Shown: piece by piece, positions 1-62,020 of the stretch
Numbering within the stretch: the stretch's first letter is position 1
Layout of the letters: each line of letters opens with the position of its first letter
From: a virus
Taxonomy: Duplodnaviria; Heunggongvirae; Uroviricota; Caudoviricetes
Reading direction: 5' to 3' (one strand)
Virus record (IMG/VR): IMGVR_UViG_2645727901_000008
DNA: 64,000 bases
The notes under the pieces: model-generated
Databases searched by the model: none
What the model saw: only the letters and a program-made list of their open reading frames with translations
Told to the model about the DNA's origin: nothing
Made by a program: the position numbers and the translations under genes

Positions 1-3000
1 AAACAAAGAGCCAAGCACCCCCTTATCTTCACCATCAATTACCTTGTATCCATTGTCATAAACTGGAATCCCCCTTGAGTTTACAGAGATTTTTTCACTC
101 TCACTTGCCGAAGAAACACCGGAGAGAAGATCCACTGAAGGCATATCGCGTTCAGCTTTTGGTCTTTTTTGTAAAGCGTCTCTTATATCAGTTACCTGGC
201 TTGCTTTTTGAAATCCAAAAGATTTACCGGTTAAGCTGGATATCTTTTCAGTAAGAGCCTGATCCATTCCTTTCGCTTTTTCGGAAAGCGAAGATATGGA
301 ACCAAACGAAGTCGCCGACGCAAAATCCTTAATCAGGCCAAGGTTTGTACCAGCAAGGCTGGTAGCCGCACCTCCAAATAAATTACCTACCCCGCTGTCA
401 TTTATAGCGATTAATCTCTCAAGCAGACTTGATGGCGAGCCAGTATTAACATCAACAATCTCTGGATTAATCGGTTGCGATTGATTGCCTGTTTTTTGTG
501 GCTTTTTGACTGCCTGGGCATGTTGTGCAACCTCAATTGGCTGTTGTGTTGCTGTCGGAACGGCATTCAAAACTGGTTGAGCTGGAGATTTTCCATTAGC
601 ATATTTTACCTTGCGACCAACACTATATTGCGAATCGCGGGCAATTAGCTGACCACCATTTTCTTTCTGAATTTTATTAATCCGCGCCAATGTTTCGTCA
701 GAGAATTGTCCCTCCCATCGACCAGTGTTAGTGTTAAATGCTCCAAGTGCATTCTTAATGAACTCATTATTAACTGCCGGATTTCCGCCTTCTTTCGTCG
801 CAATTGCACGAACTAATTGCGTCATAACCTCTGGGTTGCTGACATCTATTTTTTCATTAGGCGATACACCAAGATATTTACTGACGTTATCAATATATTG
901 GTTAGTATTGTTCTCATTTGGCGGTGCCCATTTTGAAATGATGCTGGATACCGTCTGTAACTTCTGATATCCCGCTGCAGCACTGGTGCCGTTGTAATAG
1001 CTGGAAACCTGGTTTGCCAGTGCCCTGATCCCTTCTTCAGGTGTGTTAAATCGCGCAAAACGTTGTTCACCCTTTGCATTTGGCGATTCCAGCGTCGCCC
1101 CTTCCTGGTTGGCAAAAACAAGATTACCGAGATTATTATTTCGGTAATTGCGGTTTTTAGCGTTGCTGCCGCCAATATTCAGATCCGCTGCAATGGTGTT
1201 GTTGGCAGGTGCACTAAATTCAGTTGGAGAAGTATACCCGTGCTCACCAACTCCATCCTCGCCATTACGCCCACCTTGTAATTGTTCACCTAGAGAATGA
1301 ATCGCATCGACAGTTTTTTTGGTGCCGTCTTCAACAGCTTTTTTTACTTGTTTCGTGTTTTCGTCAGTGGATAAAAATGTATCCTTAAGGCTACCAAAAA
1401 CAGATTTGGTGATATCTACCGCGCCGTTAACACCACGAGCAATATCTCCGGTATCAAAATTCTGAAGTTTTTCACCTGCTCTTTCAAATCCTAGCGCAGA
1501 AATTCCTTTCCCTATCAAGTTCGTTGCGCCCGACACCAAGCCACCCATATCGAGCACATTAGCTGTTGCGTAAGCCGTTTTTTGCTGTTCGGATACAGCA
1601 TCATCGTCACTTAAACCAAAGGCTGCCTTTTGCGCCTCTGTATCTGTGTAACCATCTATGGCGTCATATCCAGCCATTGCCAGCGAACCGATGATAGGGA
1701 CCGCTCTTGCCGCTGTGGATGCTGCTGATTTAACACCTATTTTTGCTGCACTTTTGAGGGCTACAGATTCAGTTTTTTTCTTTGCAATGACTTCGCCGGT
1801 TTTAATGGTGGCATCTTCAGCCACAACACCAGCTGACTTCACGGCCTTAGCAGTATTTTTTGTTTCCTTTGCAATCCCCTTTGATGTATCGCTGATAGTG
1901 CTTACATCTTTGGGTTTGCTGATCTTATTTTTAACTACTTTTGCTGCTCCGACACCAGTGCCAGCCGCAGCGCTACCGGCAGCAACTTTTTCGCCAGCGG
2001 AGAGTGCTTTTTTCCCAAGATTGCGGCCTTTCCTTTTCGATTTGTTCCGTTTATTTTTTCCCGTCTGATCACCAATATTGATTTTATTTCTTCTGCTTGC
2101 TCGATTTTTCCAGAGATCACTTAAGCCGAACTTATTTCCAGAAGACACTGATTTCCGAAGCTTAACTATCTCGTCAGAAACATTTTCCAGACCATCAATT
2201 ATTTTGTTGTCATTGGTCTGAAGGATTTTGGTTTGCTCTTCTACTGCTTGTGCGGATTTTGTCTCAACAGCGTTATTGAATGCTTTTGCAGATGTTGCTT
2301 TTTGAGAATTCACCGCCGCCGGATAAGTAATTACTGGTGATATCGCTTTCGAGGTTGATGTTTCTTTTTTCCCCTTTTCTACCAATTCTTTAAGAGATTC
2401 TGCTTTACCTGTGATCTCTTTAGTTATGTCGTACATGCCACGAGCCGCCATCCATAACGGCCCACCAGCACCGACACCAGCTGCATTTGTTAAAGACTCT
2501 TCACTGGAAGACTGATTGCCATCTACCCCCATAATGGAACCTAGCTTTCTGAGAAAGCCAGCTTGTAATTTTGCGTCGGCTTTACGTGCGTTCTGCAATT
2601 CTTTTTTTCTGGCTACATCCTCATTGCTTTTTTGGGATACAAAACGTCCATTACTATCCCGCAGCGGGCCTTTTAGACTTTGGGGGGATTGTGGTTCAAG
2701 AGGGGCTGAATTAGCAGCTACCGGTATAAAACCGTCCGATTTTCGGATGGTCTGACGTGATTGCACGGAGCGAACACTTTCTTGTGTGTTCGTTGCAACG
2801 ATAGAGCGGTCCACGGTTTGGTTTATCGGTGCCCTTTCCTTTTTAGCAGGGAGACGTTTTTTATATGGGTTAGTTTGGACATCTCTAACGCTATCAGATG
2901 TACTTTGCTCGTAGTCTTTACGCCTGCGTGATAGTCTGTTGCTAACTCTGCCTTGCCTTTCGTCCTGTTGAGTTATGGTGCTTGCCCCAGAAAGAATGGC

Positions 3001-3222
3001 GTCTTTTACCTCAGCAAGAGCTTTAAGTTCGTTTGTGCTCGCCTCCTGAATAGCGTCAATTATTGCGATACGGTTTTTATTCTCTTTCAAAATAACCTCT
3101 CTTTTACCAGCGCGATCAACGTTTCCCGGCTTGAGCTTTGTATTTTTCTTCCAGGGCTTTTGACATATGGAGTGCTCGCCATTGCGGTAATTGTTCAACG
3201 TCGCTAACGGGCTGATATCCAT
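1..3222 (-). CDS. sit: Tape-measure-like protein (P1 Sit-like), C-terminal part lies outside the window
   Basis: Uninterrupted minus-strand frame from ATG at 3222 to the window edge (over 1070 codons), Gly/Ala/Lys-rich repetitive sequence; absent from the ORF track because the stop is outside the window. Confidence 0.6.
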   Translation of the reverse strand, partial: MDISPLATLNNYRNGEHSICQKPWKKNTKLKPGNVDRAGKREVILKENKNRIAIIDAIQEASTNELKALAEVKDAILSGASTITQQDERQGRVSNRLSRRRKDYEQSTSDSVRDVQTNPYKKRLPAKKERAPINQTVDRSIVATNTQESVRSVQSRQTIRKSDGFIPVAANSAPLEPQSPQSLKGPLRDSNGRFVSQKSNEDVARKKELQNARKADAKLQAGFLRKLGSIMGVDGNQSSSEESLTNAAGVGAGGPLWMAARGMYDITKEITGKAESLKELVEKGKKETSTSKAISPVITYPAAVNSQKATSAKAFNNAVETKSAQAVEEQTKILQTNDNKIIDGLENVSDEIVKLRKSVSSGNKFGLSDLWKNRASRRNKINIGDQTGKNKRNKSKRKGRNLGKKALSAGEKVAAGSAAAGTGVGAAKVVKNKISKPKDVSTISDTSKGIAKETKNTAKAVKSAGVVAEDATIKTGEVIAKKKTESVALKSAAKIGVKSAASTAARAVPIIGSLAMAGYDAIDGYTDTEAQKAAFGLSDDDAVSEQQKTAYATANVLDMGGLVSGATNLIGKGISALGFERAGEKLQNFDTGDIARGVNGAVDITKSVFGSLKDTFLSTDENTKQVKKAVEDGTKKTVDAIHSLGEQLQGGRNGEDGVGEHGYTSPTEFSAPANNTIAADLNIGGSNAKNRNYRNNNLGNLVFANQEGATLESPNAKGEQRFARFNTPEEGIRALANQVSSYYNGTSAAAGYQKLQTVSSIISKWAPPNENNTNQYIDNVSKYLGVSPNEKIDVSNPEVMTQLVRAIATKEGGNPAVNNEFIKNALGAFNTNTGRWEGQFSDETLARINKIQKENGGQLIARDSQYSVGRKVKYANGKSPAQPVLNAVPTATQQPIEVAQHAQAVKKPQKTGNQSQPINPEIVDVNTGSPSSLLERLIAINDSGVGNLFGGAATSLAGTNLGLIKDFASATSFGSISSLSEKAKGMDQALTEKISSLTGKSFGFQKASQVTDIRDALQKRPKAERDMPSVDLLSGVSSASESEKISVNSRGIPVYDNGYKVIDGEDKGVLGSLF

Positions 3223-3236
3223 ATAGAGTCAGGTTG

Positions 3237-4058
3237 TTAATAATGGTTAGCCATCCATTCAGATCTAATTGATGGGATAAACTCTCTATTGAGAAAGGGG
3301 ACGTACAGTGTGGTTGTCACATCTGCACCCTCCTTAGCGTTTTTGCAATGTTGCGGAGGCAGGATCAGTCGGCTTGTGCCTCTCTCAATAGACATTTTCA
3401 GGCCGTGGCGTAGGTCTTTTTGCATAAGCTGTATGCGAGCCACAAGCGGTGTAAACTCGGTTTCAAGCGCCATGCTTTCAATGATGTCGAAGCGTCGGTT
3501 AGCTGCTTGAGTGAAGTCTTCCGGATCGTCGTCCAGTGCTGTGCATAAAGCGAGTTCTGCAATGCGCATACGGGCCACGCCTGCACTGTATTCAGGGCTT
3601 TTCATATCAGGAAGTGACGCACGCATACGTTCAAGGAGTTCCGCGCCTTTCCCGGTTAATGGTTTAAGTATCCAGTCAGTTGGTACGCCGTTTACCGGTA
3701 CGTTGGTTTTTACGTAAGGCGGTACAGTGAGTATCTCTACTGTTTGAGCCAGATCGCTCAGGTTTATATCGGCGTGATGCGTATTACCGCAGTGACTGCA
3801 CTCATAGGAGTAGGTCATTACTGCATCGGGGCGCGAATTAACAAATATCCACCAAAGAGCAGTTCTGCGATCCTGAACTGTCCAGTTAGCACTGTCGTTA
3901 ATTTCACCATCCTGCATAGAGTTAAGGTACTCTGTAGTAGTTGCCTCATCTTCTGCCGGGTTCAGGTCAGAATATTTCAGCGCATCCTTCACGGTAGGGG
4001 CGTGGAACTGAATTTCTGTCTCAGGACGGGAAGGCAATGGGAATTTTGGAATGTTCAA
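3237..4058 (-). CDS. Hypothetical tail morphogenesis protein, Cys/His-containing
   Basis: 273-aa ORF directly upstream of sit; TTG start preceded by GGAGG; CSHCGNTHH motif. Confidence 0.45.
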   Translation of the reverse strand: MNIPKFPLPSRPETEIQFHAPTVKDALKYSDLNPAEDEATTTEYLNSMQDGEINDSANWTVQDRRTALWWIFVNSRPDAVMTYSYECSHCGNTHHADINLSDLAQTVEILTVPPYVKTNVPVNGVPTDWILKPLTGKGAELLERMRASLPDMKSPEYSAGVARMRIAELALCTALDDDPEDFTQAANRRFDIIESMALETEFTPLVARIQLMQKDLRHGLKMSIERGTSRLILPPQHCKNAKEGADVTTTLYVPFLNREFIPSIRSEWMANHY

Positions 4059-12681: not shown

Positions 12682-12814
12682 GGTTAAGCCCTAAATTCGG
12701 GCGCGGCGTGAAGGTTCTTTTGACGGGCTAACAATACCTACTTTGTGATTTAGTCAATAGGTTTAGTAAAATAAAATCTATTAACACTCATGTTGTTATG
12801 TGGTTTAATTTTAG

Positions 12815-12828
12815 TTTTCTAACACAAA
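12815..12828. promoter_or_regulatory. C1-type operator-like site TTTTCTAACACAAA
   Basis: Member of a recurring TTTTCTAACA motif family; immediately upstream of ATG 12840. Confidence 0.5.
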
Positions 12829-12839
12829 TCATTAGAGTT

Positions 12840-20868: not shown

Positions 20869-20912
20869 CCAATTGTGTTAGAAAATTCTATTCAATTATC
20901 TAACACAATTGG
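20869..20912. promoter_or_regulatory. Palindromic pair of C1-type operator-like sites upstream of hrdC
   Basis: CCAATTGTGTTAGAAAATT / AATTATCTAACACAATTGG near-perfect palindrome. Confidence 0.55.
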
Positions 20913-32314: not shown

Positions 32315-33241
32315 TTAACTAACAATCCAGTCCATAGCAACCATATCCTCTGGCGCTAAATCAATAGCATGGATTTTCCCATCCCGGATAGTGCGCCAGT
32401 GCTTCCTTGATCCGCCTTCGGGCCATACCCATACACCTTCAGACCATGAGGCGCGACGGCATACCGTTGCATATCCACTTCTGATCTTCTCTCTGGCGGT
32501 ATGCAGTGACAGATTATCTTTTGGGATTTCCGGTAAAGGATGATGGATTGCCTGAAACAGCCCCATCTTGGGATGATACCAGCGTTTGTTGCGTGGTTCT
32601 GCCTCCGACATAACCTGCTTGAAGGCTTTCTGGAAGGGGGCCAGGGCCACAATGGAGCGTCGCGCAAGCAAACCATCTGGAGTTAAAAACTCATGCGTAT
32701 CGGTGGGAATCCGGAAAGCGTTAACCAGGTTGCGACATTTGGCTTCGGTCAGGCCACATTTCGCCGCCAGCTGGCGGTAGCCAATGTAGCCTTCCGGAAT
32801 ATTGCCTTTCTTTATTTGCTCGAGTGTTTCAGCGACCATCGATACTTGTGCTGATACCTCGGCTACCTGGGCATTTACGGCGTTGATCCGGCGTTCATGC
32901 TCAAGATGCATTTGCGCCATTTCAGCCAGGATTTCGGCTTTTGATTTTAACTGTACCCGGGCATTCTCCAGTTCGCGCCAGCGGTCCACCAGCCGGGCGG
33001 TGAATTCGGGAGAGAGCTGCGCGACGACGACAATACTATCGCGCTTGCCTTGCTCGCCTTCGAAGACGTAATAGCTCGCCGGGCGGCCTGCGGTGGGCTT
33101 TTCCTCAATTTGAGGAAAAGATATTACGCCCCGTTCCGCCAGGTGTTCAATGGTGCGTTTAACGTTATCAGGGCGCTTACCTACCAGTTCCGCGATCTCA
33201 ATGCTGGTCATTGTCGCTTTTTGAGAGATGGACAGATTCAT
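32315..33241 (-). CDS. ant: Antirepressor-like protein (Rha-like N-terminal region)
   Basis: N-terminal TSIEIAELVGKRPDNVKRTIEHL; start overlaps the upstream small ORF stop (ATGA); GGAGG RBS. Confidence 0.55.
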   Translation of the reverse strand: MNLSISQKATMTSIEIAELVGKRPDNVKRTIEHLAERGVISFPQIEEKPTAGRPASYYVFEGEQGKRDSIVVVAQLSPEFTARLVDRWRELENARVQLKSKAEILAEMAQMHLEHERRINAVNAQVAEVSAQVSMVAETLEQIKKGNIPEGYIGYRQLAAKCGLTEAKCRNLVNAFRIPTDTHEFLTPDGLLARRSIVALAPFQKAFKQVMSEAEPRNKRWYHPKMGLFQAIHHPLPEIPKDNLSLHTAREKIRSGYATVCRRASWSEGVWVWPEGGSRKHWRTIRDGKIHAIDLAPEDMVAMDWIVS

Positions 33242-33456
33242 CAGTGCGCCTCCACGCAGTTCATCGGCAGATTCCAGTAATTGAGGATCTCCATCGCATC
33301 AAGAGTGAAGCGAGCAGCAAAAATGCAGGGTTCTTCGGGAAGGTATGAGCGCGCCTCTGCTTCGGTAGCAGCCATGACGCAGATATACAGGTGTTTTTGG
33401 CAGGAATAGAAACGCCAGATAAATTCAGAATGAGTTGGGGTAGGGATAGTAGCCAT
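33241..33456 (-). CDS. icd: Icd-like small protein upstream of ant
   Basis: 71-aa ORF with AGGAGG RBS, positioned like P1 icd. Confidence 0.4.
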   Translation of the reverse strand: MATIPTPTHSEFIWRFYSCQKHLYICVMAATEAEARSYLPEEPCIFAARFTLDAMEILNYWNLPMNCVEAH

Positions 33457-33631
33457 ATTGGCAGCCTCCTTTGACTAAGTTAAGGAGCTACCGCGTGAGG
33501 TTCCAATCTCAATGGCGGTAGCACTGACTGGGTTGGAACTACCGGCGTCAAAGGGAACCGGCCTGCCTTTCGGCAGCCCAGCCAGCACTACCATTGATCT
33601 CTGAGCTAAACGCTACGTATGGCTGTGCGAT

Positions 33632-33720
33632 GGCATGACACAAAAAAAGACGCTTTCGGCGTCTGTGTCGCCTTTGACATTATCCGGGGTTCCAATCCCG
33701 GCACCCGTTTTTCTAAGGTG
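33632..33720 (-). ncRNA. Candidate c4-like antisense RNA
   Basis: Promoter-like region with operator-like GTAGAAATATA, then on the minus strand a hairpin (AGACGC-CGAAA-GCGTCT) plus U-run about 80 nt downstream; GGTTCCAATC-type elements recur in the icd leader. Confidence 0.35.
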
Positions 33721-33772
33721 CCGTAGAAATATACCCCACGATAATGCCAGGGCGCAACAGTCAGTATTTTAT

Positions 33773-33937
33773 GCTTTGGCGGATTTCTTCCGGGCTTGCT
33801 TGCAGGCGTAGGCCATTGCTTTAGCTTTCACTTCATCCAGCTTCCCGGTGATCGCTTCTTTTCCGAGAGTGACAAACCAGTCATAGCAACCGCCAGTGAT
33901 GTTCTGGATTTGAAAGTTGAGGTAGCGAACGGTCATT
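33773..33937 (-). CDS. Small hypothetical protein (54 aa), not in the ORF track
   Basis: ATG with GGGGGTG RBS-like upstream. Confidence 0.3.
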
Positions 33938-34256
33938 TTGACACCCCCAGCGCGAGTAAAGAATGCAGATTATCGCGTGAGTGGCGGACAACGAGTGATG
34001 GGAAAAGACAGTAGCTGTTCATAGTGTAGTGACTCCTTGCTTTCGGAGCCGCCATCGACTGTTCCACGGTCTGGTGGCGGCGCAATAAAGGCTGGAACAC
34101 CGTGAGTCAACGGGGGCTTTTCAGCCACCTATATTGCACCGCCATAGGTATAGCGGCGGCAATAATACGAAAAACTAAACAGTTTGTCTCAAAAAGTTGA
34201 CCGGTGTGCCAATCGGTAGTGAATGTACATCGGAGAAATTTACAATTCAACTTAAA

Positions 34257-34271
34257 ATGTTAGAAAACTAA
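34257..34271. promoter_or_regulatory. C1-type operator-like site ATGTTAGAAAACTAA
   Basis: Nearly identical to the site upstream of the c1-like gene; faces the sim-like/c4/icd/ant region. Confidence 0.45.
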
Positions 34272-34846
34272 TTTATCAATTCAATCGCCATCTGATACAA
34301 CGTCATTTCATCGGCATTGTGCCGCATGAAATCTGCTTTTCCGCCTATTTTTCCGTCAGCATGAACAGGGACCAGCCAGGGATATTGTTCTCGGACCTCG
34401 GCTGGCGCTGCGTACTGGTGGTGCCATTTACACAAAGGGAGGACATATTTATGCGCGTTCTCTGCCGTTCTCCCGAAGATATGGTGCAGGGATACTACTG
34501 GGCTATGTTGTCCGTGAATATGGCAGGCAATGCAGGGGAGAGTACCGATAGCGGTCTGTATCCGGCGTTCATCAGCTGTGAGTGATCTGCCCTTCAGGCC
34601 GCGTGACGTGCGTGTTTTTTTGGGCGGAGCGGATACAGCTTTATCTTTTCTCCGCTGTTCATATTGCTTTGCTTTTTCAATTTTCTTTTGCCGATATTCA
34701 GGCGATGCGGCTTTTTCTCTCGCTCGCTGCTGCTGGCGTTGAGCTTGTTGAAGGCGCTTTGCCCTTTGTTCCTCTCGCCAGGCCGGGTCAGCCAATTTTT
34801 GCATGGCTTTTTGTCTCTGTTTCTCCCAATAGCTCTGTTTCTGCAT
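34268..34846 (-). CDS. ref: Ref-like HNH endonuclease
   Basis: Lys/Arg/Gln-rich N-terminus then HNH-like core CIACHIHG...HHIFGR...CKWHH. Confidence 0.7.
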   Translation of the reverse strand: MQKQSYWEKQRQKAMQKLADPAWREEQRAKRLQQAQRQQQRAREKAASPEYRQKKIEKAKQYEQRRKDKAVSAPPKKTRTSRGLKGRSLTADERRIQTAIGTLPCIACHIHGQHSPVVSLHHIFGRTAENAHKYVLPLCKWHHQYAAPAEVREQYPWLVPVHADGKIGGKADFMRHNADEMTLYQMAIELIN

Positions 34847-34893
34847 GATGGCAGTCTCTTACTTTTCAATGATTTTTCTATGATTGATCAAAA

Positions 34894-34929
34894 CTGTTAG
34901 ATATTCAAAATTGATTTTCTAACACAAAA
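34894..34929. promoter_or_regulatory. Pair of C1-type operator-like sites in the divergent ref region
   Basis: CTGTTAGATAT and TTTTCTAACACAAAA. Confidence 0.5.
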
Positions 34930-38205: not shown

Positions 38206-38228
38206 TCAAATCATTTACGCACTCAAAA

Positions 38229-38263
38229 TGCGTTAGAACATTGATTTTAGTTTTCTAACATAT
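38229..38263. promoter_or_regulatory. Inverted pair of C1-type operator-like sites
   Basis: CGTTAGAACA ... TTTTCTAACATAT upstream of ATG 38303. Confidence 0.5.
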
Positions 38264-38302
38264 TATTTTACCACTCGGAACAAAACAGAGTCGGTATGCA
38301 TT

Positions 38303-49120: not shown

Positions 49121-49174
49121 AGCACCCTCCGAAATAGGCGAGGGTACTTTACAGCAAAGATAACAATCTAAAAA

Positions 49175-49190
49175 GATGTGTTAGAAATTT
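49175..49190. promoter_or_regulatory. C1-type operator-like site
   Basis: GATGTGTTAGAAATTT between the cre stop and the next gene start. Confidence 0.45.
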
Positions 49191-49193
49191 AAT

Positions 49194-50222
49194 TTATGAA
49201 TCCATCAGGCGGCTATTAGCCCCCACAGACACGCCGCCACGGCGCAGATACCGCATAAGTGTTTCCGGTTTCTTCCAGGTTCCTTCCTGCATGATCTCCA
49301 CCATAGACACCTGCTTTTCAGCCATATCGATAGCGGCCCCGACACGAGCACTATGCCCGGTCCACGTCCGGTATCTCCCTTTGTTTGGCGTGGCATCTCT
49401 TTTATTCAGCAACACCCAGGCGTCGCTGAATATTTTCTCCATTGCAGGTGCAGTAAGGGGAGTTGTCGTAATCCTGGCCTTATTGCTACGGTGTATCGGC
49501 GGGAACAGCACCGCGTCAGGATGTTCACGAAGCCCGGAAACATCCAGCCAGTCATTCAGCACTGCGGTAGTGCGACGGGAAAGCACCTTATCAAGCCCGG
49601 CGGCGGTCGTTATTGTCTTCGTGTGTGAAATATGTAGCGTGACAGTGTCACCTGTTTGGTCCAGATCTCCTACACGAATACGCGAGATTTCAGACATTCG
49701 CATCAGCGTATTGTATGCAACGAAGAGGAAAGCCCGGTTACGCAGGTCCACCAGCCGTTCTGACCTGGACAACAGGACGTCGAGCAGTTTCAGATCGTCC
49801 CACCGCAGCGGTATAGCCTGGCCTGTTCGTTCGCCTTTTTCCGTTGCCGCTTCGCGCCGGATGCGCCGCATAGCCAGAGAAACACTTTTATCATCCGAAA
49901 GTGGCGGAAGGCCACAATGCGAAAGCAGCATGTTAAGCATGGCGTAGTGCTTATCAATGGTGGTCGAAGCCAGATCAGCATCATGCAGCTGAAGAAAATA
50001 CTCGCGGGCCATCTCTGGTGAGATCGGGAACCAAGCGAGCTGGCGAGCGTGGCACCATCGCGCCCAGGAGTGAAACACTAACCGGAGATCGCGCAAAGTA
50101 TTCGGCGCGTAAGCCCCCTGGTCATTCATGAACCGCATAAAGTTTTCTGCGGCCTCCTGGTACTCTTTGCCAATGTTGCGCAGAAAACCACCGGAGCTGC
50201 CAGAGATAATTAATTCACTCAT
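49194..50222 (-). CDS. cre: Cre-like tyrosine site-specific recombinase
   Basis: Extended similarity to P1 Cre as recalled (HSWARWC, WFPISPE, SVSLAMRRIRRE, WTGHSARVGAA, LMRYLRR). Confidence 0.9.
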   Translation of the reverse strand: MSELIISGSSGGFLRNIGKEYQEAAENFMRFMNDQGAYAPNTLRDLRLVFHSWARWCHARQLAWFPISPEMAREYFLQLHDADLASTTIDKHYAMLNMLLSHCGLPPLSDDKSVSLAMRRIRREAATEKGERTGQAIPLRWDDLKLLDVLLSRSERLVDLRNRAFLFVAYNTLMRMSEISRIRVGDLDQTGDTVTLHISHTKTITTAAGLDKVLSRRTTAVLNDWLDVSGLREHPDAVLFPPIHRSNKARITTTPLTAPAMEKIFSDAWVLLNKRDATPNKGRYRTWTGHSARVGAAIDMAEKQVSMVEIMQEGTWKKPETLMRYLRRGGVSVGANSRLMDS

Positions 50223-50493: not shown

Positions 50494-50594
50494 AATTTTC
50501 TAAATTGGATGACAAAAAAATGCATCTTGATCCTTTACTCACCCTGTTATTCGGCATAGATTTGTCATAGTAATTTTATGTTAGAAAACTAAAT
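50494..50594. promoter_or_regulatory. Operator-like sites upstream of the c1-like gene
   Basis: ATTTTCTAAAT (about 50494) and ATGTTAGAAAAC (50578-50589). Confidence 0.45.
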
Positions 50595-50606
50595 CGAGTA
50601 GGAATA

Positions 50607-51644
50607 ATGAGTAAGAAGTCGATCGAGAAAGAGTACAAACGGTTCCTGCAAACCGCTGAACGGTGGAAAGAGCTGGTGGTCGCAAACTCTGTTTTCCATG
50701 ATACCAGTTATGCCGGCGAGGAATTCCGCCACGTTGCACTAACACATGATCAGAATGTACTAGAAGAAGCTGAAAAGTGCCTCACAGAATGGAAAGCCTT
50801 TGTTGACTTGTGCCGTAACGCTGACGGCAAAGCGTCCAACATTGTTGAGTCTGTATATTCTCCGATCCCATTCATTATTGAGGACACAAATCAAAGCACG
50901 CATATTGTTGTGCAAAGCGCGACCACCACCCGCTCATTTACGCGCGAAAATCTGCTCAAAAAATATGATGCAATTATAAAGAAAAGCCTGAAAAACAAGA
51001 TATTTTCGCAGATTGTTGGTGCACTTGAAGAAGAGCGCCGTTTTTTCGCATCAGAACCTGAAGGGGAAGTTTACCGGGCGCGCAAAGATGGATACACAGA
51101 TGTAGTGCTTACAACAAACATTGAAGGCAGCAATGCTCTGTCACGATTCAGGGTAGGCGCACACGGAGCCTTAGTGTTCGCAAAACTTCCGAACACCACA
51201 GTGCCCGTTGTTAATAATGTCGGCGAACGTCGCAGCATTACTATTTATTCTGGGGTTGAGTCGATACCTTGCGGCCTGCTTGGTGACTTTAGCCTCTATC
51301 GCGTTCGCGATCTGGAGAAACACCAACCAAGCTATGTTGCGAAGTCATATATCTTGCGAAACATCGACATCCGCAATGAGAGCTTAAAGAACAAATCAGC
51401 CAAAATGCTTGAGGAAGCCGATCCGGCTATTCGCCATATCATTGAGCGTAAAATACAGACAGCACGCGAAGCGATGGCGAGACTGAATAAAATGGATCTG
51501 GAGTTGTTAGACGTAATGATGACATCCGGAGATGACCTGACAGGCATAAAACTGACAGACGCGCGGAAAAGATACGGTAAAACCATAGAAGAACGTTACG
51601 GGTTCACTTTCTCCCAAACACAGCACGCCGCTAAACTCTGGTAA
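50607..51644 (+). CDS. Putative C1-like master repressor (assignment by position)
   Basis: 345-aa ORF between lox/cre and pacB, preceded by clustered operator-like sites; no recognisable motif. Confidence 0.4.
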   Translation: MSKKSIEKEYKRFLQTAERWKELVVANSVFHDTSYAGEEFRHVALTHDQNVLEEAEKCLTEWKAFVDLCRNADGKASNIVESVYSPIPFIIEDTNQSTHIVVQSATTTRSFTRENLLKKYDAIIKKSLKNKIFSQIVGALEEERRFFASEPEGEVYRARKDGYTDVVLTTNIEGSNALSRFRVGAHGALVFAKLPNTTVPVVNNVGERRSITIYSGVESIPCGLLGDFSLYRVRDLEKHQPSYVAKSYILRNIDIRNESLKNKSAKMLEEADPAIRHIIERKIQTAREAMARLNKMDLELLDVMMTSGDDLTGIKLTDARKRYGKTIEERYGFTFSQTQHAAKLW

Positions 51645-54931: not shown

Positions 54932-55005
54932 TAATCCCCCGGGCAGGAAATGACCGAGGGGATGATAATGAGAATGTTAAAACTGTATAGACTGGTAAAA
55001 AGATG

Positions 55006-55026
55006 ATTATATTAGAAAATTAATAT
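55006..55026. promoter_or_regulatory. C1-type operator-like site upstream of lpa
   Basis: ATTATATTAGAAAATTAATAT. Confidence 0.4.
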
Positions 55027-55039
55027 TAAATACCTAACG

Positions 55040-55432
55040 CTACCAGCGAGACAAACGAACAACATGTTTCACTTTTGCGATCCACTTTCCGCGATAACTA
55101 TTGATTACGGCCTGTGCCAGCTTCAAATTGGCTTCAAAATCAGCCTTACTACCATCAGACTCCACCAGCATTCCTCCATCTATTTCTGGTAAACATAGAT
55201 AATCCTGCTCAACCTGCAGCGGCATTGATGGCTCTCTGAATGGCGTTACTTGCTCTGCTTTCCAGCGAAATCTAACCCTCATCCCCCTGGTGGTCATTAC
55301 TAGATAGCCTGTTATAGTGCTTTTATGGCCCACATCAGTACGCGTGGCATTGCATGACACGATCTTACAGTTAGCGATAGACCACTCCATATTGGTGGCC
55401 TGTTGAGTGCTTAATTTGGTAGTCCCGTACAT
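55040..55432 (-). CDS. Hypothetical protein
   Basis: 130-aa ORF. Confidence 0.4.
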   Translation of the reverse strand: MYGTTKLSTQQATNMEWSIANCKIVSCNATRTDVGHKSTITGYLVMTTRGMRVRFRWKAEQVTPFREPSMPLQVEQDYLCLPEIDGGMLVESDGSKADFEANLKLAQAVINSYRGKWIAKVKHVVRLSRW

Positions 55433-56461: not shown

Positions 56462-56537
56462 TGGTGGCCCCTACCGGACTTGAACCGGTGACCGTGCGAT
56501 TATGAGTCGCCAGCTCTAACCACTGAGCTAAAGGGCC
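56462..56537 (-). tRNA. tRNA-Ile2-like, anticodon CAT (could be Met)
   Basis: Cloverleaf traced by hand; close to E. coli ileX as recalled; CCA encoded. Confidence 0.8.
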
Positions 56538-58064: not shown

Positions 58065-58140
58065 TGGTGCCGATTAACGGGATCGAACCGCTGACCATTC
58101 GCTTACAAAGCGACTGCTCTACCAACTGAGCTAAACCGGC
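58065..58140 (-). tRNA. tRNA-Thr (TGT)
   Basis: Canonical cloverleaf, anticodon loop TTTGTAA, CCA encoded. Confidence 0.85.
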
Positions 58141-58144
58141 AATT

Positions 58145-58231
58145 TGGTGGGGAGTGATGGAGTCGAACCACCCGAGTCGCAATGACAGTAGATTTACAGT
58201 CTACCCCGCTACCCCTACGGACTAACTCCCC
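58145..58231 (-). tRNA. tRNA-Tyr (GTA), long variable arm
   Basis: Anticodon stem-loop GTAGA-CTGTAAA-TCTAC as in E. coli tRNA-Tyr; CCA encoded. Confidence 0.75.
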
Positions 58232-58236
58232 TAAAG

Positions 58237-58313
58237 TGGCGATGGTGGGTGGATTCGAACCACCGACCGACAGCTTAGAAGGCTGCTGCTCTATCCTACT
58301 GAGCTACACCATC
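58237..58313 (-). tRNA. tRNA-Arg (TCT)
   Basis: Canonical cloverleaf, anticodon loop CTTCTAA, CCA encoded. Confidence 0.85.
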
Positions 58314-58895: not shown

Positions 58896-59383
58896 ATGCG
58901 GCACTCTCTCCGCCCGTCACCGTTCTGTCTCGGTTGTCGCGTTTGCCACGCCAGCCGTAACGAGGTTTAAAGTCTTTGCACGTTTCCATCACTCGACTGC
59001 CGTCTGTGGCTGTTCGTTGCAGCGGGGGTGCCTCCCCCTGGGGATATCCCCGGCCTTACCCCATTCTTTCAAGACACAATGCAAGGCCGCATCCGCATAG
59101 GTGCATTACCGCAACATTAAGGAGACTTAGGGCAAAAGGTAATCGCCACAAAAAAAATCCCTATGCCTCCTTAATGTTGAGGATGTGCATTGATGATGAT
59201 TCGATGCGGCGAGTCCCGTTACTCTCTGCCGGACCATCATCAATGAACATCTTAAAAAGACCTTCCGTGGCTCAACATGTCTTGTCGTTTACTCCGTAAA
59301 GTGCTCTCTCTGAAACCACTTTACGCACTAAACCTGCTGAACTTTGGCTTGCTCGGTGCCAAAGCGAGTCCCTGTATGTATGT

Positions 59384-59398
59384 AATTTTCTAACACTT
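59384..59398. promoter_or_regulatory. C1-type operator-like site
   Basis: AATTTTCTAACACTT. Confidence 0.45.
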
Positions 59399-59540
59399 TA
59401 ATTTGTTATTTGCTGGTGGGCGAACAACAACCAATAAGTGACTATCAAGCCCAGCAAGCGAAATGTGGCAACGCTCCACCAGCAAGGAAAATTCTAAGTT
59501 AAGTTACTCTCACAATCAATACGTTCGTTTAGTGAAATTA

Positions 59541-59555
59541 GATTTCTAACATTTT
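59541..59555. promoter_or_regulatory. C1-type operator-like site
   Basis: GATTTCTAACATTTT at the 3-prime end of the 406-aa gene. Confidence 0.45.
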
Positions 59556-60774
59556 ATTTCCCATAAAGATCTTCTACGCCCCCATTCTTCTTGTCCCATT
59601 CGTTAGCCCACACCCGGCAGGCATCAATAATTTCTTGACGACGGTCGCCCTGCATAAAGGGGATGCTTTCATGAAAACTACTTGGGATACAGGCCACGCT
59701 GAATACGGTATCAAACGCAGTCTGTTTGATAGCTTCCAACGTCTCTGGGCGCATTTTCAATTCATCGATCGGCGCATCCTTAGAGTCCATAATCCGGCGA
59801 TGCAGGCGCGGGAAATCAGTCTCCAGGTACGCCATAATTTTATCTGCCAGGCATTCGTCTATATCGGTATTCCAGTCCGTTTCGAAGCCGGGCAGGCGAT
59901 AGTAAAGCGGCGTTCCCCATACTGATGGGATCACATCCATCGTCAGCAGGCGGTTGGTTCTAATTTGTTGATGGTAATTAGCCGTCAACAGAGCTTCACC
60001 ACGCTGACCAGTCTCCGCAACCAGACCATGCGGGTACTCATGGATATAGGCAATAGCATCCACCCCGTCATACATGAGCGGGAATGTCTCTGGCCTTTGT
60101 CCCATACCACAAGCGCGGTTCAGATCATGACCAAGCTGTGAGCACTCTCGTTTCAGCGTTTCAATAATGTTCTGCGCTGTTGCTAACTTTTTACGCAGTG
60201 TGACGCCTTCGCCTTGATACTTAATGCATTGCTGATTCAGCTCTGTTAAACGCTCTTTTAGTTCCCGACGCTCTCTTTTCAGCGCACGGTTATCCTTCTC
60301 CGCAACATCCAGTCGTTTTGACAGACTGGCTGGATAGTCTTTTTTGTAACGACTCAAATCGGCTTCTGCGGATTTGCGCAGTGTGTTTGCCTGTTCAAGA
60401 CGCGCTTCCAGATTACCGATCTCACTACGCATATTCGCGGCAAATTGATTAACAGCATTGCCAAGACTTTCAACTGTCGCTGATACGCCTGTGACTTGTG
60501 AAAAACGGATCAAGCCATCATTAACGGCTTGTTGATATCCCTCAAACTGATCCACCAGCTTGTTGTAATCAACCGTCCCTTCCTCAAGTAGCTGGTTGAT
60601 CTCCGCGACCAGGTTATCAGTAGTGGCAATGACGCTCTCATGTAACCGTCTGGACAGGTCATCCCCCGGATTCCGCTTTTGAATAAGGGCGATCTGTGTC
60701 CGCAGCGTTTCAATCGCGGCTGAGATGATTTCCAGATTAGAAGTATCAGTTTGTTGACTCATTGCAGTTCCCAT
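59554..60774 (-). CDS. Operator-controlled coiled-coil protein
   Basis: ATG 60774 (or 60762) just downstream of the operator; long N-terminal coiled-coil. Confidence 0.5.
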   Translation of the reverse strand: MGTAMSQQTDTSNLEIISAAIETLRTQIALIQKRNPGDDLSRRLHESVIATTDNLVAEINQLLEEGTVDYNKLVDQFEGYQQAVNDGLIRFSQVTGVSATVESLGNAVNQFAANMRSEIGNLEARLEQANTLRKSAEADLSRYKKDYPASLSKRLDVAEKDNRALKRERRELKERLTELNQQCIKYQGEGVTLRKKLATAQNIIETLKRECSQLGHDLNRACGMGQRPETFPLMYDGVDAIAYIHEYPHGLVAETGQRGEALLTANYHQQIRTNRLLTMDVIPSVWGTPLYYRLPGFETDWNTDIDECLADKIMAYLETDFPRLHRRIMDSKDAPIDELKMRPETLEAIKQTAFDTVFSVACIPSSFHESIPFMQGDRRQEIIDACRVWANEWDKKNGGVEDLYGK

Positions 60775-60790
60775 TGTTTTTTGCAAGATT

Positions 60791-60806
60791 AGTTTTCTAA
60801 CATATT
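60791..60806. promoter_or_regulatory. C1-type operator-like site
   Basis: AGTTTTCTAACATATT. Confidence 0.5.
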
Positions 60807-60844
60807 TTATTAGTATGAGAACAAGAGCGAAAGATGTGATAAAC

Positions 60845-61388: not shown

Positions 61389-61832
61389 TTAATCAAGACA
61401 AACATATTCCGTGATAGCTTTTATGGCTTCATCGGCACTGCGCGCCTCAAAGCAGTAATAGCCTGCTTCCGTGAGGCGAGTCATCCAGACGAGCTGTTCG
61501 GGAGTCAGACGGTTTCTCCCGTGCTTCATCTCAATGCGCATTCCGTGATACCCACCACGAGCAAGGTCAATAGAAAGGTCCGGATAGCCCTTCTTCTGAC
61601 CTTCTGCCACCATCTTAATGGCTGTCCTTTTGCCTCTCAGGCCGCCGTTCGGTGTTGAGTGTGTGTGCTCATACACGTATCGCATGTTGCGATACAGCCA
61701 ATCCAGAACGCGAACCTGTTCGTAATGTTCGTAATTCCGTTTTAATAAGTCAGGATTTCTTTCTAACTCTCTCAGTGCAGCAGCGTGCGGGGATATTTCA
61801 GAATACGCACTATGATGCCTGCGTCTTCGCAT
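61389..61832 (-). CDS. VRR-NUC-type (PD-(D/E)xK) nuclease
   Basis: GYPDLSIDL...HGMRIEMK core; ATG 61832 abuts the operator. Confidence 0.65.
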   Translation of the reverse strand: MRRRRHHSAYSEISPHAAALRELERNPDLLKRNYEHYEQVRVLDWLYRNMRYVYEHTHSTPNGGLRGKRTAIKMVAEGQKKGYPDLSIDLARGGYHGMRIEMKHGRNRLTPEQLVWMTRLTEAGYYCFEARSADEAIKAITEYVCLD

Positions 61833-61834
61833 CA

Positions 61835-61849
61835 AATTTCTAACACAAA
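61835..61849. promoter_or_regulatory. C1-type operator-like site
   Basis: AATTTCTAACACAAA immediately upstream of the VRR-NUC start. Confidence 0.5.
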
Positions 61850-62020
61850 CTTACTGAATTCATGAACACGATAATAACAAGAGCGTTAGTTTTATCAAAC
61901 CGAGGGGAATACTACTGAAGAGATAGGCGGATGCAACAGGTCGGACTTGTTTTTAGAGTAAATGGTGATGCGGGTCAACAAGCCGGGTAAATTGTATGTC
62001 ATTTACCCAACTTGTTATTT

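Follow-up and report, generated by a model that had tools for sequence, protein, structure and literature searches.

The locus examined here raises the question of which RNA encoded upstream of a coupled icd-like and antirepressor gene pair is the antisense regulator of that pair, and how this regulator is tied to the prophage repressor. The pair lies in a 64,000-nucleotide (nt) stretch of viral DNA (IMG/VR record IMGVR_UViG_2645727901_000008), the whole of which we call the window. An earlier note on this DNA had proposed a c4-type antisense RNA of about 80 nt, running from an operator-like promoter to a hairpin with a U-run. We conclude that the region is very probably an immunity module of the immI type, carried by a D6-like phage-plasmid and organized like the c4-icd-ant module of phage P1, in which the antisense RNA is a full-length C4 located downstream of the transcript first proposed. 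The features of the module, all read on the minus strand, are collected in Table 1 together with those of the surrounding DNA.

Table 1. Features of the immunity region and related sites in the window (SD, Shine-Dalgarno sequence; PWM, position weight matrix; aa, amino acids)
Feature	Position	Strand	Basis or remark
Antirepressor gene, 308 aa	32315..33241	-	Rha N-terminal domain, phrog_63 "anti-repressor Ant"
icd-like gene, 71 aa	33241..33456	-	P1 Icd similarity, NCBIfam
icd leader (a2 and b2)	33457..33510	-	site complementarity, covariation with C4
b2, GUCAAAGG	33475..33468	-	icd leader, overlaps SD AAGGAG 33471..33466
a2, UUGGAAC	33506..33500	-	icd leader, 5 nt past C4
C4 antisense RNA	33511..33598	-	Rfam RF01695, own model R1, fold, family covariation
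a', GUUCCAA	33539..33533	-	C4 junction
b', CCUUUGAC	33554..33547	-	C4 hairpin-2 loop
IsrK-family (a1b1) leader RNA	33643..33721	-	Rfam RF01394, terminator scan, fold
Terminator hairpin AGACGC-CGAAA-GCGUCU, then U6	33664..33648; U6 33647..33642	-	6 bp, G+C-rich
b1, GUCAAAGG	33678..33671	-	in IsrK-like RNA
a1, UUGGAAC	33695..33689	-	loop of second IsrK hairpin
Promoter of IsrK-like RNA (TTGCGC, 18-nt spacer, TATATT)	-35 33757..33752; -10 33733..33728	-	sigma-70-like, operator-less
orf55, 55 aa	33936..33769	-	phrog_7786; no Pfam domain
orf29, 29 aa	34022..33933	-	overlaps orf55 by ATGA
b2 of divergent c4-like RNA, GAGUCA	34035..34030	-	exact complement at +35, overlaps SD AAGGAG 34038..34033
a2 of divergent c4-like RNA, UGGAACA	34066..34060	-	orf29 leader; exact complement at +4
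Divergent c4-like RNA	34070..34149	-	model R1, Rfam C4 below threshold, fold
a' of divergent c4-like RNA, UGUUCCA	34099..34093	-	junction
b' of divergent c4-like RNA, UGACUC	34109..34104	-	second-hairpin loop
Promoter-like site Pb (GAGACA, 17 nt, TATTAT)	34162..34190	-	scan match; hexamers kept in L115, L117
Putative promoter Pa (-35 TTGAAT, 17-nt spacer, -10 TACATT)	34222..34250	-	adjoins operator; conservation
C1-like operator, ATTAGTTTTCTAACA	34258..34272	-	PWM 30 bits; overlaps ref stop codon 34270..34268
C1 homolog, 345 aa, phrog_1678	50607-51644	+	tblastn to P1 C1
Operator-motif sites	12805-12829; 20871-20910 (inverted pair); 34253-34277; 34890-34929 (pair upstream of ref); 38226-38265 (pair); 49174-49198; 50574-50598; 55005-55044; 59376-59400; 59532-59556; 60783-60807; 61826-61850		

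Sequence comparison places the window in a D6-like, P1-related phage-plasmid. Over the 1.1-kb region, identity is 97.8% to Escherichia phage D6 (NC_050154, 74930-76022) and 98-99.9% to E. coli plasmids of ~90 kb; of 5426 complete E. coli genomes, 429 have the region, nearly always plasmid-borne. The icd-like product is 63% identical to P1 Icd (E 5e-28) and matches the NCBIfam model phage_ICD_like with 49.5 bits, the icd stop codon overlaps the ant start codon (UGAUG), and the D6 record labels the antirepressor homolog "anti-repressor Ant." In the closest database relative, the E. coli GZ2408P plasmid (L090, 99.9% identical), the annotation treats the Rha-type antirepressor as a pseudogene with a frameshift (2560-3254); it is intact in the window.

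That a c4-type antisense RNA is encoded upstream of this pair, as the earlier note had held, is borne out by the Rfam C4 model RF01695, which scores 77.1 bits over its full length (1-87; curated threshold 45), and a covariance model built here, R1, gives 97.8 bits to the same RNA. This C4 begins 45 nt downstream of an IsrK-like RNA and has no terminator of its own. Its minimum free energy fold is the Rfam consensus three-way junction, with a long closing stem and two internal hairpins (-46.5 kcal/mol, z -5.0). In an alignment of 21 distinct family members, standard pairs fill 98.2% of the pair cells and 19 of the 27 pairs have changed on both sides; register-shifted controls of this alignment are 29-54% paired. 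The structure is therefore supported by family covariation and by the z score of the fold. The 3' end reads ...ACCGCCAUU, and its terminal ...ACCGCCA resembles the ...GCCACC of P1. P1 c4 is released from its transcript by processing, and the RNA described here is probably cut out in a P1-like manner, by RNase P and 3' trimming, its 3' end being the only hint of this in the sequence.

The RNA of about 80 nt that was originally delineated as c4 turns out to be a different element. The IsrK model RF01394 scores 62.7 bits on this segment (curated threshold 50). The hairpin and U-run had been placed correctly, ~79 nt downstream of a sigma-70-like promoter that a generic promoter scan missed and that was seen after lining up 13 homologous loci at the RNA start. 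Across these 13 diverse loci the distances of the -35 and -10 hexamers from the RNA start are constant, the spacers differ, and in P1 the hexamers coincide with the annotated promoter P1c4 (formerly P51b). Contrary to what had been supposed, this promoter is not operator-like: with a PWM built from the 13 window copies of the operator motif TGTTAGAAAAyTAAT, the top score within 33200-34252 is 3 bits, and the AAAA-rich stretch near the promoter is the loop of the first IsrK hairpin. Matches of the Rfam c4-a1b1 model RF03163 overlap IsrK matches in other phages, and this model gives 51 bits on P1 itself, where it matches the leader; we therefore regard IsrK and c4-a1b1 as one element.

The idea that the promoter-to-terminator RNA (33721..33643) is itself the c4-type repressor of icd/ant draws on its conserved promoter, its intrinsic terminator, its c4-like size, and a 10-nt element that it has in common with the icd leader. 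However, this element (GAUUGGAACC) has the same sense in both places, as does GUCAAAGG, so the RNA cannot pair with the icd leader through them. Moreover, Rfam identifies it as IsrK and not C4, with the full-length C4 45 nt downstream, the annotated P1 layout has the a1/b1 target copies at this position, and covariation links the downstream C4 with both flanking target sets. We consider this alternative extremely improbable.

Exact complements of C4 a' lie at -97 and +5, and those of b' at -80 and +36, the last of these overlapping the SD. The upstream copies (a1 and b1), which lie in the IsrK-like leader, are identical in the window to the downstream copies (a2 and b2) in the icd leader. The repeated element reported earlier for the RNA and the icd leader, GGTTCCAATC, does occur as exactly two perfect copies in the 64-kb window (plus strand, 33499-33508 and 33688-33697), one in the icd leader and one in the ~80-nt IsrK-like RNA, and the complementary element that had been noted is the minus-strand GUUCCAA of a', situated between the two copies. 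The second complementary pair, GUCAAAGG/CCUUUGAC, an 8-mer with three of its four window copies in this module, was absent from the earlier note, as were C4 itself and the divergent c4-like RNA discussed below.

The comparison drew on ~90 related loci, taken from D6-like and P1-like viral contigs and from P1, phiP27, several Stx phages, and a Klebsiella phage, and model R1 located C4 in every one. Across these loci a' and b' are the most variable segments of C4. Each locus has an exact complement of a' both upstream (~75-97 nt) and downstream (1-7 nt) of C4, and a complement of b' on the SD, 30-36 nt downstream. The loci comprise 13 specificity combinations (10 a' types and 8 b' types), in all of which every position of a' and b' pairs with the cognate a2 and b2 (7/7 and 8/8); the cognate a1 and b1 are likewise fully paired in the 12 readable types, save one 7/8 case. 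Non-cognate combinations of RNA and target average 4.8/7 and 5.1/8 paired positions. The window (GUUCCAA/CCUUUGAC) and phage D6 (GUCUCAA/CCUUUUGC) differ at both sites, with all four target copies changed to match, and probably differ in immI specificity. These counts rest on site-by-site complementarity at homologous positions, which replaced a comparison of whole C4 against whole targets with RNAduplex; the latter was uninformative, shuffled targets scoring nearly as well, because C4 is unfolded by the tool. We take the covariation as strong in silico evidence that the a and b pairings are functional. Family membership, structure, complementarity, covariation, and the conservation of promoters and operator are established by this analysis.

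Further loci extend this picture of specificity. A fourteenth type was seen in L158 (1380-1510 and 1690-1960), whose main C4 has a further b specificity, CUUUAGUGG, with matching b1 and b2. In the P1-like loci L034, L044, and L088 (e.g., phage vB_EcoM-673R5), the downstream a2 and b2 match C4 only via G-U wobbles, for example a2 UUGGUCU versus a' AGGCCAA, and this group may represent a weakened or recombinant specificity.

Based on these features, we posit that transcription would start at ~33721 from the operator-less promoter (33757..33728) and that most transcripts would end at the intrinsic terminator, yielding a ~79-nt IsrK-family RNA with the decoys a1 and b1. Read-through transcripts would carry C4 (33598..33511), which would then be cut out and pair, through a' GUUCCAA and b' CCUUUGAC, with a2 and b2 in the icd leader. 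Since b2 overlaps the SD, icd would stay untranslated, and because ant overlaps the icd stop codon and untranslated icd RNA would be terminated, as in P1, no antirepressor would be made and the C1-like repressor would remain active. The short a1b1 RNA could titrate C4 or open the long transcript in the manner of Gifsy-1 IsrK, and would thereby set the threshold for release of the antirepressor; that it titrates or activates is likely given that it carries perfect decoys of both C4 targets. In this scheme, processing, translational block, termination, and the target of the antirepressor are the steps that we infer.

A different weighting of the same parts is suggested by Gifsy-1, whose IsrK binds Hfq and, as the short RNA, turns on translation from the read-through mRNA in trans (PMC4825925); both read-through and trans-activation were shown experimentally there and lead to antirepressor translation and prophage induction (PMC4825925). 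Were positive control of this kind to dominate here, C4 would act mainly in cis within a silent read-through mRNA (structure A, a1b1 paired with a'b'), the short RNA would activate icd-ant in trans, and free C4 would be minor. The above-threshold IsrK match with its promoter and terminator fits such control, as does the identity of a1/b1 with a2/b2, which puts the short RNA in competition for the same surfaces of C4, and in Gifsy-1 the mechanism was demonstrated by compensatory mutations and 30S binding assays (PMC4825925). However, the window has P1 features that Gifsy-1 lacks, namely icd with b2 on its SD; C4 ends in ...GCCA as in P1, where c4 is annotated as a free 77-nt RNA; and the ORF through C4 (orf45 in Gifsy-1) is not conserved. 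We think it unlikely that the Gifsy-1 mode prevails over the P1-type repression proposed above, although the two are compatible and both may operate.

The ORF in question starts at the conserved AUGG of C4, is the counterpart of Gifsy-1 orf45, and is labeled "ash family protein" by the Prokaryotic Genome Annotation Pipeline (PGAP). As a candidate conserved upstream ORF through C4 it was rejected, its length and end point varying widely: it has 14 aa in P1 and L082, 28 aa in the Klebsiella phage, and 39 aa in the window, where its stop codon lies 19 nt ahead of icd, and in Stx phages it is fused to the downstream gene. Given this lack of conservation among relatives, gene calls across it look spurious, and annotation near IsrK and C4 is often wrong. 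The 39-aa PGAP "ash family protein" sits exactly on C4 (window 33475-33594, minus strand; L090 2207-2326), the D6 record has a 99-aa opposite-strand ORF spanning IsrK and C4 (L001 4490-4789, minus strand), and the "transcriptional regulator" or "regulatory protein" coding sequences (CDSs) of phiP27 (L083 1448-2107) and the Stx-type phage P13803 (L085 1596-2381) begin upstream of or within the IsrK/C4 RNAs. The latter two starts are likely start-codon miscalls, since the downstream gene shares its reading frame with the C4 AUGG. Long "regulatory protein" ORFs extending across both IsrK and C4 are annotated in Stx phages. One viral contig, L040, carries two full-scoring C4 copies 1.5 kb apart (1359-1446 and 2925-3012).

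How the module is linked to the repressor depends on the operators. The 13 copies of TGTTAGAAAAyTAAT in the window score 25-34 bits, compared with a maximum of 17.5 in 20 shuffles; the motif is asymmetric and over-represented, and several copies form inverted pairs. The D6-type C1 repressor probably uses it as its operator, so that its copies would map the repressor regulon. A homolog of P1 C1 (20% identity over 239 aa by tblastn, E 8e-6) has an operator copy immediately upstream, which fits an autoregulated C1-type repressor recognizing the motif, and its product is probably the prophage master repressor. The further operator copy that the earlier note placed upstream of the module is present, with a PWM score of 30 bits at 34258-34272, and it is conserved in the divergent loci L115, L117, and L158. 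Beside it lies Pa, for which promoter activity is suggested by the hexamers and 17-nt spacing kept in L115, L117, L118, and L158 while the spacer diverges; the layout of operator and Pa resembles Oc4/P2c4 of P1. The suggestion that the whole unit is under C1-like control may hold in part: it is plausible for Pa and its operator, which lie ~500 nt upstream of the main module with another module between and where repressor binding is predicted, but the IsrK-like promoter has no operator. On the minus strand a terminator scan found no terminator-like site between orf55 (Table 1) and the IsrK-like terminator, and more transcription could thus reach the main module as well once the operator is derepressed, with Pa feeding it upon C1 inactivation.

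The module lying between Pa and the IsrK-like promoter consists of a second, divergent c4-like RNA followed by two small ORFs, orf29 and orf55. Model R1 detects this RNA with 43.6 bits (E 1.8e-7), its fold is the same three-way junction as that of C4 (-36.2 kcal/mol, z -4.6), and its 3' end, GCCACC, is like that of P1 c4. The exact complements of its a' and b' elements in front of orf29 lie at +4 and +35, the offsets of canonical c4 modules; the copies of a1 and b1 upstream of it are degenerate. Every D6-like locus has the RNA, and so do the divergent L115 and L117, in both of which the RNA, the 7- and 6-nt complements, and the SD overlap are all kept despite diverged flanks. A scan of viral contigs with its loop and a' returned 33 contigs, essentially the D6-like set that orf55 had already yielded, and no new specificity types. 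The family of orf55 comprises 16 clusters, on E. coli and Salmonella contigs mostly of 50-94 kb, and the only plasmids carrying it are D6-like ones of ~90 kb; a scan of genome contigs for orf55 gave no match. The promoter-like site Pb may start transcription ~6 nt before the c4-like RNA, or its spacer may instead be a small hairpin of the leader, with a U-run; no consensus structure emerged when RNAalifold was applied to the leader from Pa to this RNA (-1.1 kcal/mol). A 61-aa ORF that follows the RNA in L115 was tried as an Icd-like candidate and rejected, BLASTP lending it no support.

On these sequence features, the divergent RNA is probably a second switch, albeit an unproven one: the operator-linked promoter (34250..34222) would drive it, and it would block the ribosome-binding site of orf29-orf55 as C4 would that of icd. 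The a' elements of the two RNAs of this plasmid have the hexamer GUUCCA in common, so they could cross-talk at site a while being orthogonal at site b. The fuller proposal is of two tandem c4-type switches, one behind the C1-operator-linked promoter and gating orf29-orf55, the other the canonical IsrK-C4-icd-ant module, with possible cross-talk at the a sites, orthogonal b sites, and hence a two-tier circuit. We offer it tentatively, judging its chances to be slightly short of even.

Several observations weigh against the reading of the locus given here. The c4-a1b1 model scores 22.4 bits at 33734..33681, below its threshold of 46.7 bits, although the a1 and b1 copies of the leader are present and covary despite this. 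The 308-aa antirepressor has no homology to P1 Ant1 (BLASTP E 0.26), and since it is not a P1 Ant homolog and the C1 proteins are only 20% identical, its action on the D6-type C1 is assumed. P1 C4 is reportedly subject to processing and reportedly exerts a translational block with Rho-dependent polarity; for this element all three would be carried over from P1 by analogy, just as the short IsrK-like RNA may act in trans by analogy with Gifsy-1. With regard to the divergent RNA, the Rfam C4 model gives 40.2 bits (E 1.1e-5 in a 2.1-kb search), which is under the threshold of 45, and no RNA/target covariation was seen in the loci found, the RNA being 94% conserved and RNA and targets being invariant there.

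The last two points would also be expected if the divergent RNA were a decaying duplicate without a regulatory role, the operator at 34258 simply controlling orf55, and so would its degenerate upstream a1 and b1. L158, a more distant relative, fits as well, its operator and promoter standing directly ahead of an orf55 homolog without a c4-like RNA; we conclude from this arrangement that the operator-controlled promoter is old and that the segment of the c4-like RNA and orf29 is an insertion or deletion polymorphism. Decay is harder to reconcile with the full three-way fold (z -4.6), with the retention in L115 and L117 of the RNA, its complements at +4/+35, and the SD overlap, and with stem differences that keep or improve pairing (U-G to C-G; U.U to C-G or U-G). 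The chance of finding both complements at those offsets is ~1e-6, a rough estimate that was not computed by a tool. We regard decay as rather doubtful, while granting that it has a real claim. A regulatory role together with cross-talk at site a, if true, would make the immunity circuit two-tier and partly coupled, and a sub-threshold c4-like RNA beside a repressor operator is an inexpensive candidate, open to testing, for an additional level of control.

In more general terms, the a and b sites supply at least 13 naturally occurring antisense/target pairs, mutually non-cognate and fixed in position. Their specificity probably decides heteroimmunity among co-resident P1-like and D6-like phage-plasmids, which are common in strains of E. 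coli and Salmonella in which resistance plasmids are also present. As for the wider surroundings, a gene for a Ref-like RecA-dependent nuclease (34268-34846, minus strand) lies directly upstream of the immunity region, and a cluster of four tRNA genes is found on the minus strand at 56465-56537, 58068-58140, 58148-58231, and 58240-58313.

Among described systems, the closest are the D6-like plasmids themselves, for which an ImmI-like region with c4, icd, and antirepressor has been reported (PMC6799933). The S1 Table of a 2019 study of one of them, pYU39_89, lists ref, a 55-aa hypothetical CDS, isrK (79 nt), c4 (88 nt), icd (216 nt), a rha antirepressor (927 nt), and pmgF (PMC6799933), and adjacent isrK and C4 annotations also appear in at least one Stx phage record. 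Gene order and sizes in pYU39_89 and phage D6 (NC_050154) are identical to those of the window; relative to phage D6, C4 and its targets differ at both pairing sites. Because the isrK-c4-icd-rha order was already annotated for pYU39_89, our main finding is already known and adds little on its own. The divergent c4-like RNA is absent from the annotation between ref and the 55-aa CDS in both the pYU39_89 table and the D6 RefSeq record, and it appears to be new.

The order of elements in the P1 record, which we took from its GenBank feature table, is Oc4, P2c4 (P51a), P1c4 (P51b), a1, b1, c4, a2, b2, icd, and ant1/2, and it is the same in the window. Further likenesses to the immI modules of P1 and P7 are the spacing, the antirepressor overlapping the icd stop codon, the Rfam C4 family, b2 on the icd SD, a putative operator link at an upstream promoter, and a proximal promoter without an operator. 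In contrast to P1, the specificity is GUUCCAA/CCUUUGAC rather than CUGUCAA/UCACUAAC, the antirepressor (Rha-N/phrog_63) is not homologous to Ant1, and a strong terminator closes the leader, which reaches the threshold of IsrK but not that of c4-a1b1. Likewise, the operator-linked promoter lies ~500 nt upstream, with an extra c4-like RNA and two small ORFs between, and the operator TGTTAGAAAAyTAAT differs, as does the C1 homolog at 20% identity.

With isrK-orf45(STnc1160)-anrP of Gifsy-1 (PMC4825925) the module has in common a short IsrK-family RNA that has a promoter of its own and a leaky terminator, a C4-family region to which the middle of IsrK is complementary, and an antirepressor. Unlike Gifsy-1, it has icd between C4 and the antirepressor and belongs to a plasmid prophage with a P1-type C1 system; an AntQ-like antiterminator was not found beside it, the upstream neighbor being ref. 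A similar arrangement is known from phage P4, in which the CI RNA is a processed antisense RNA flanked by complementary targets upstream and downstream on the same transcript, and in which seqA has been called a structural homolog of IsrK (PMC4825925). P4 CI (seqA/seqC) acts by premature transcription termination of replication genes, in contrast to the ribosome-binding-site block that we propose for icd and ant.

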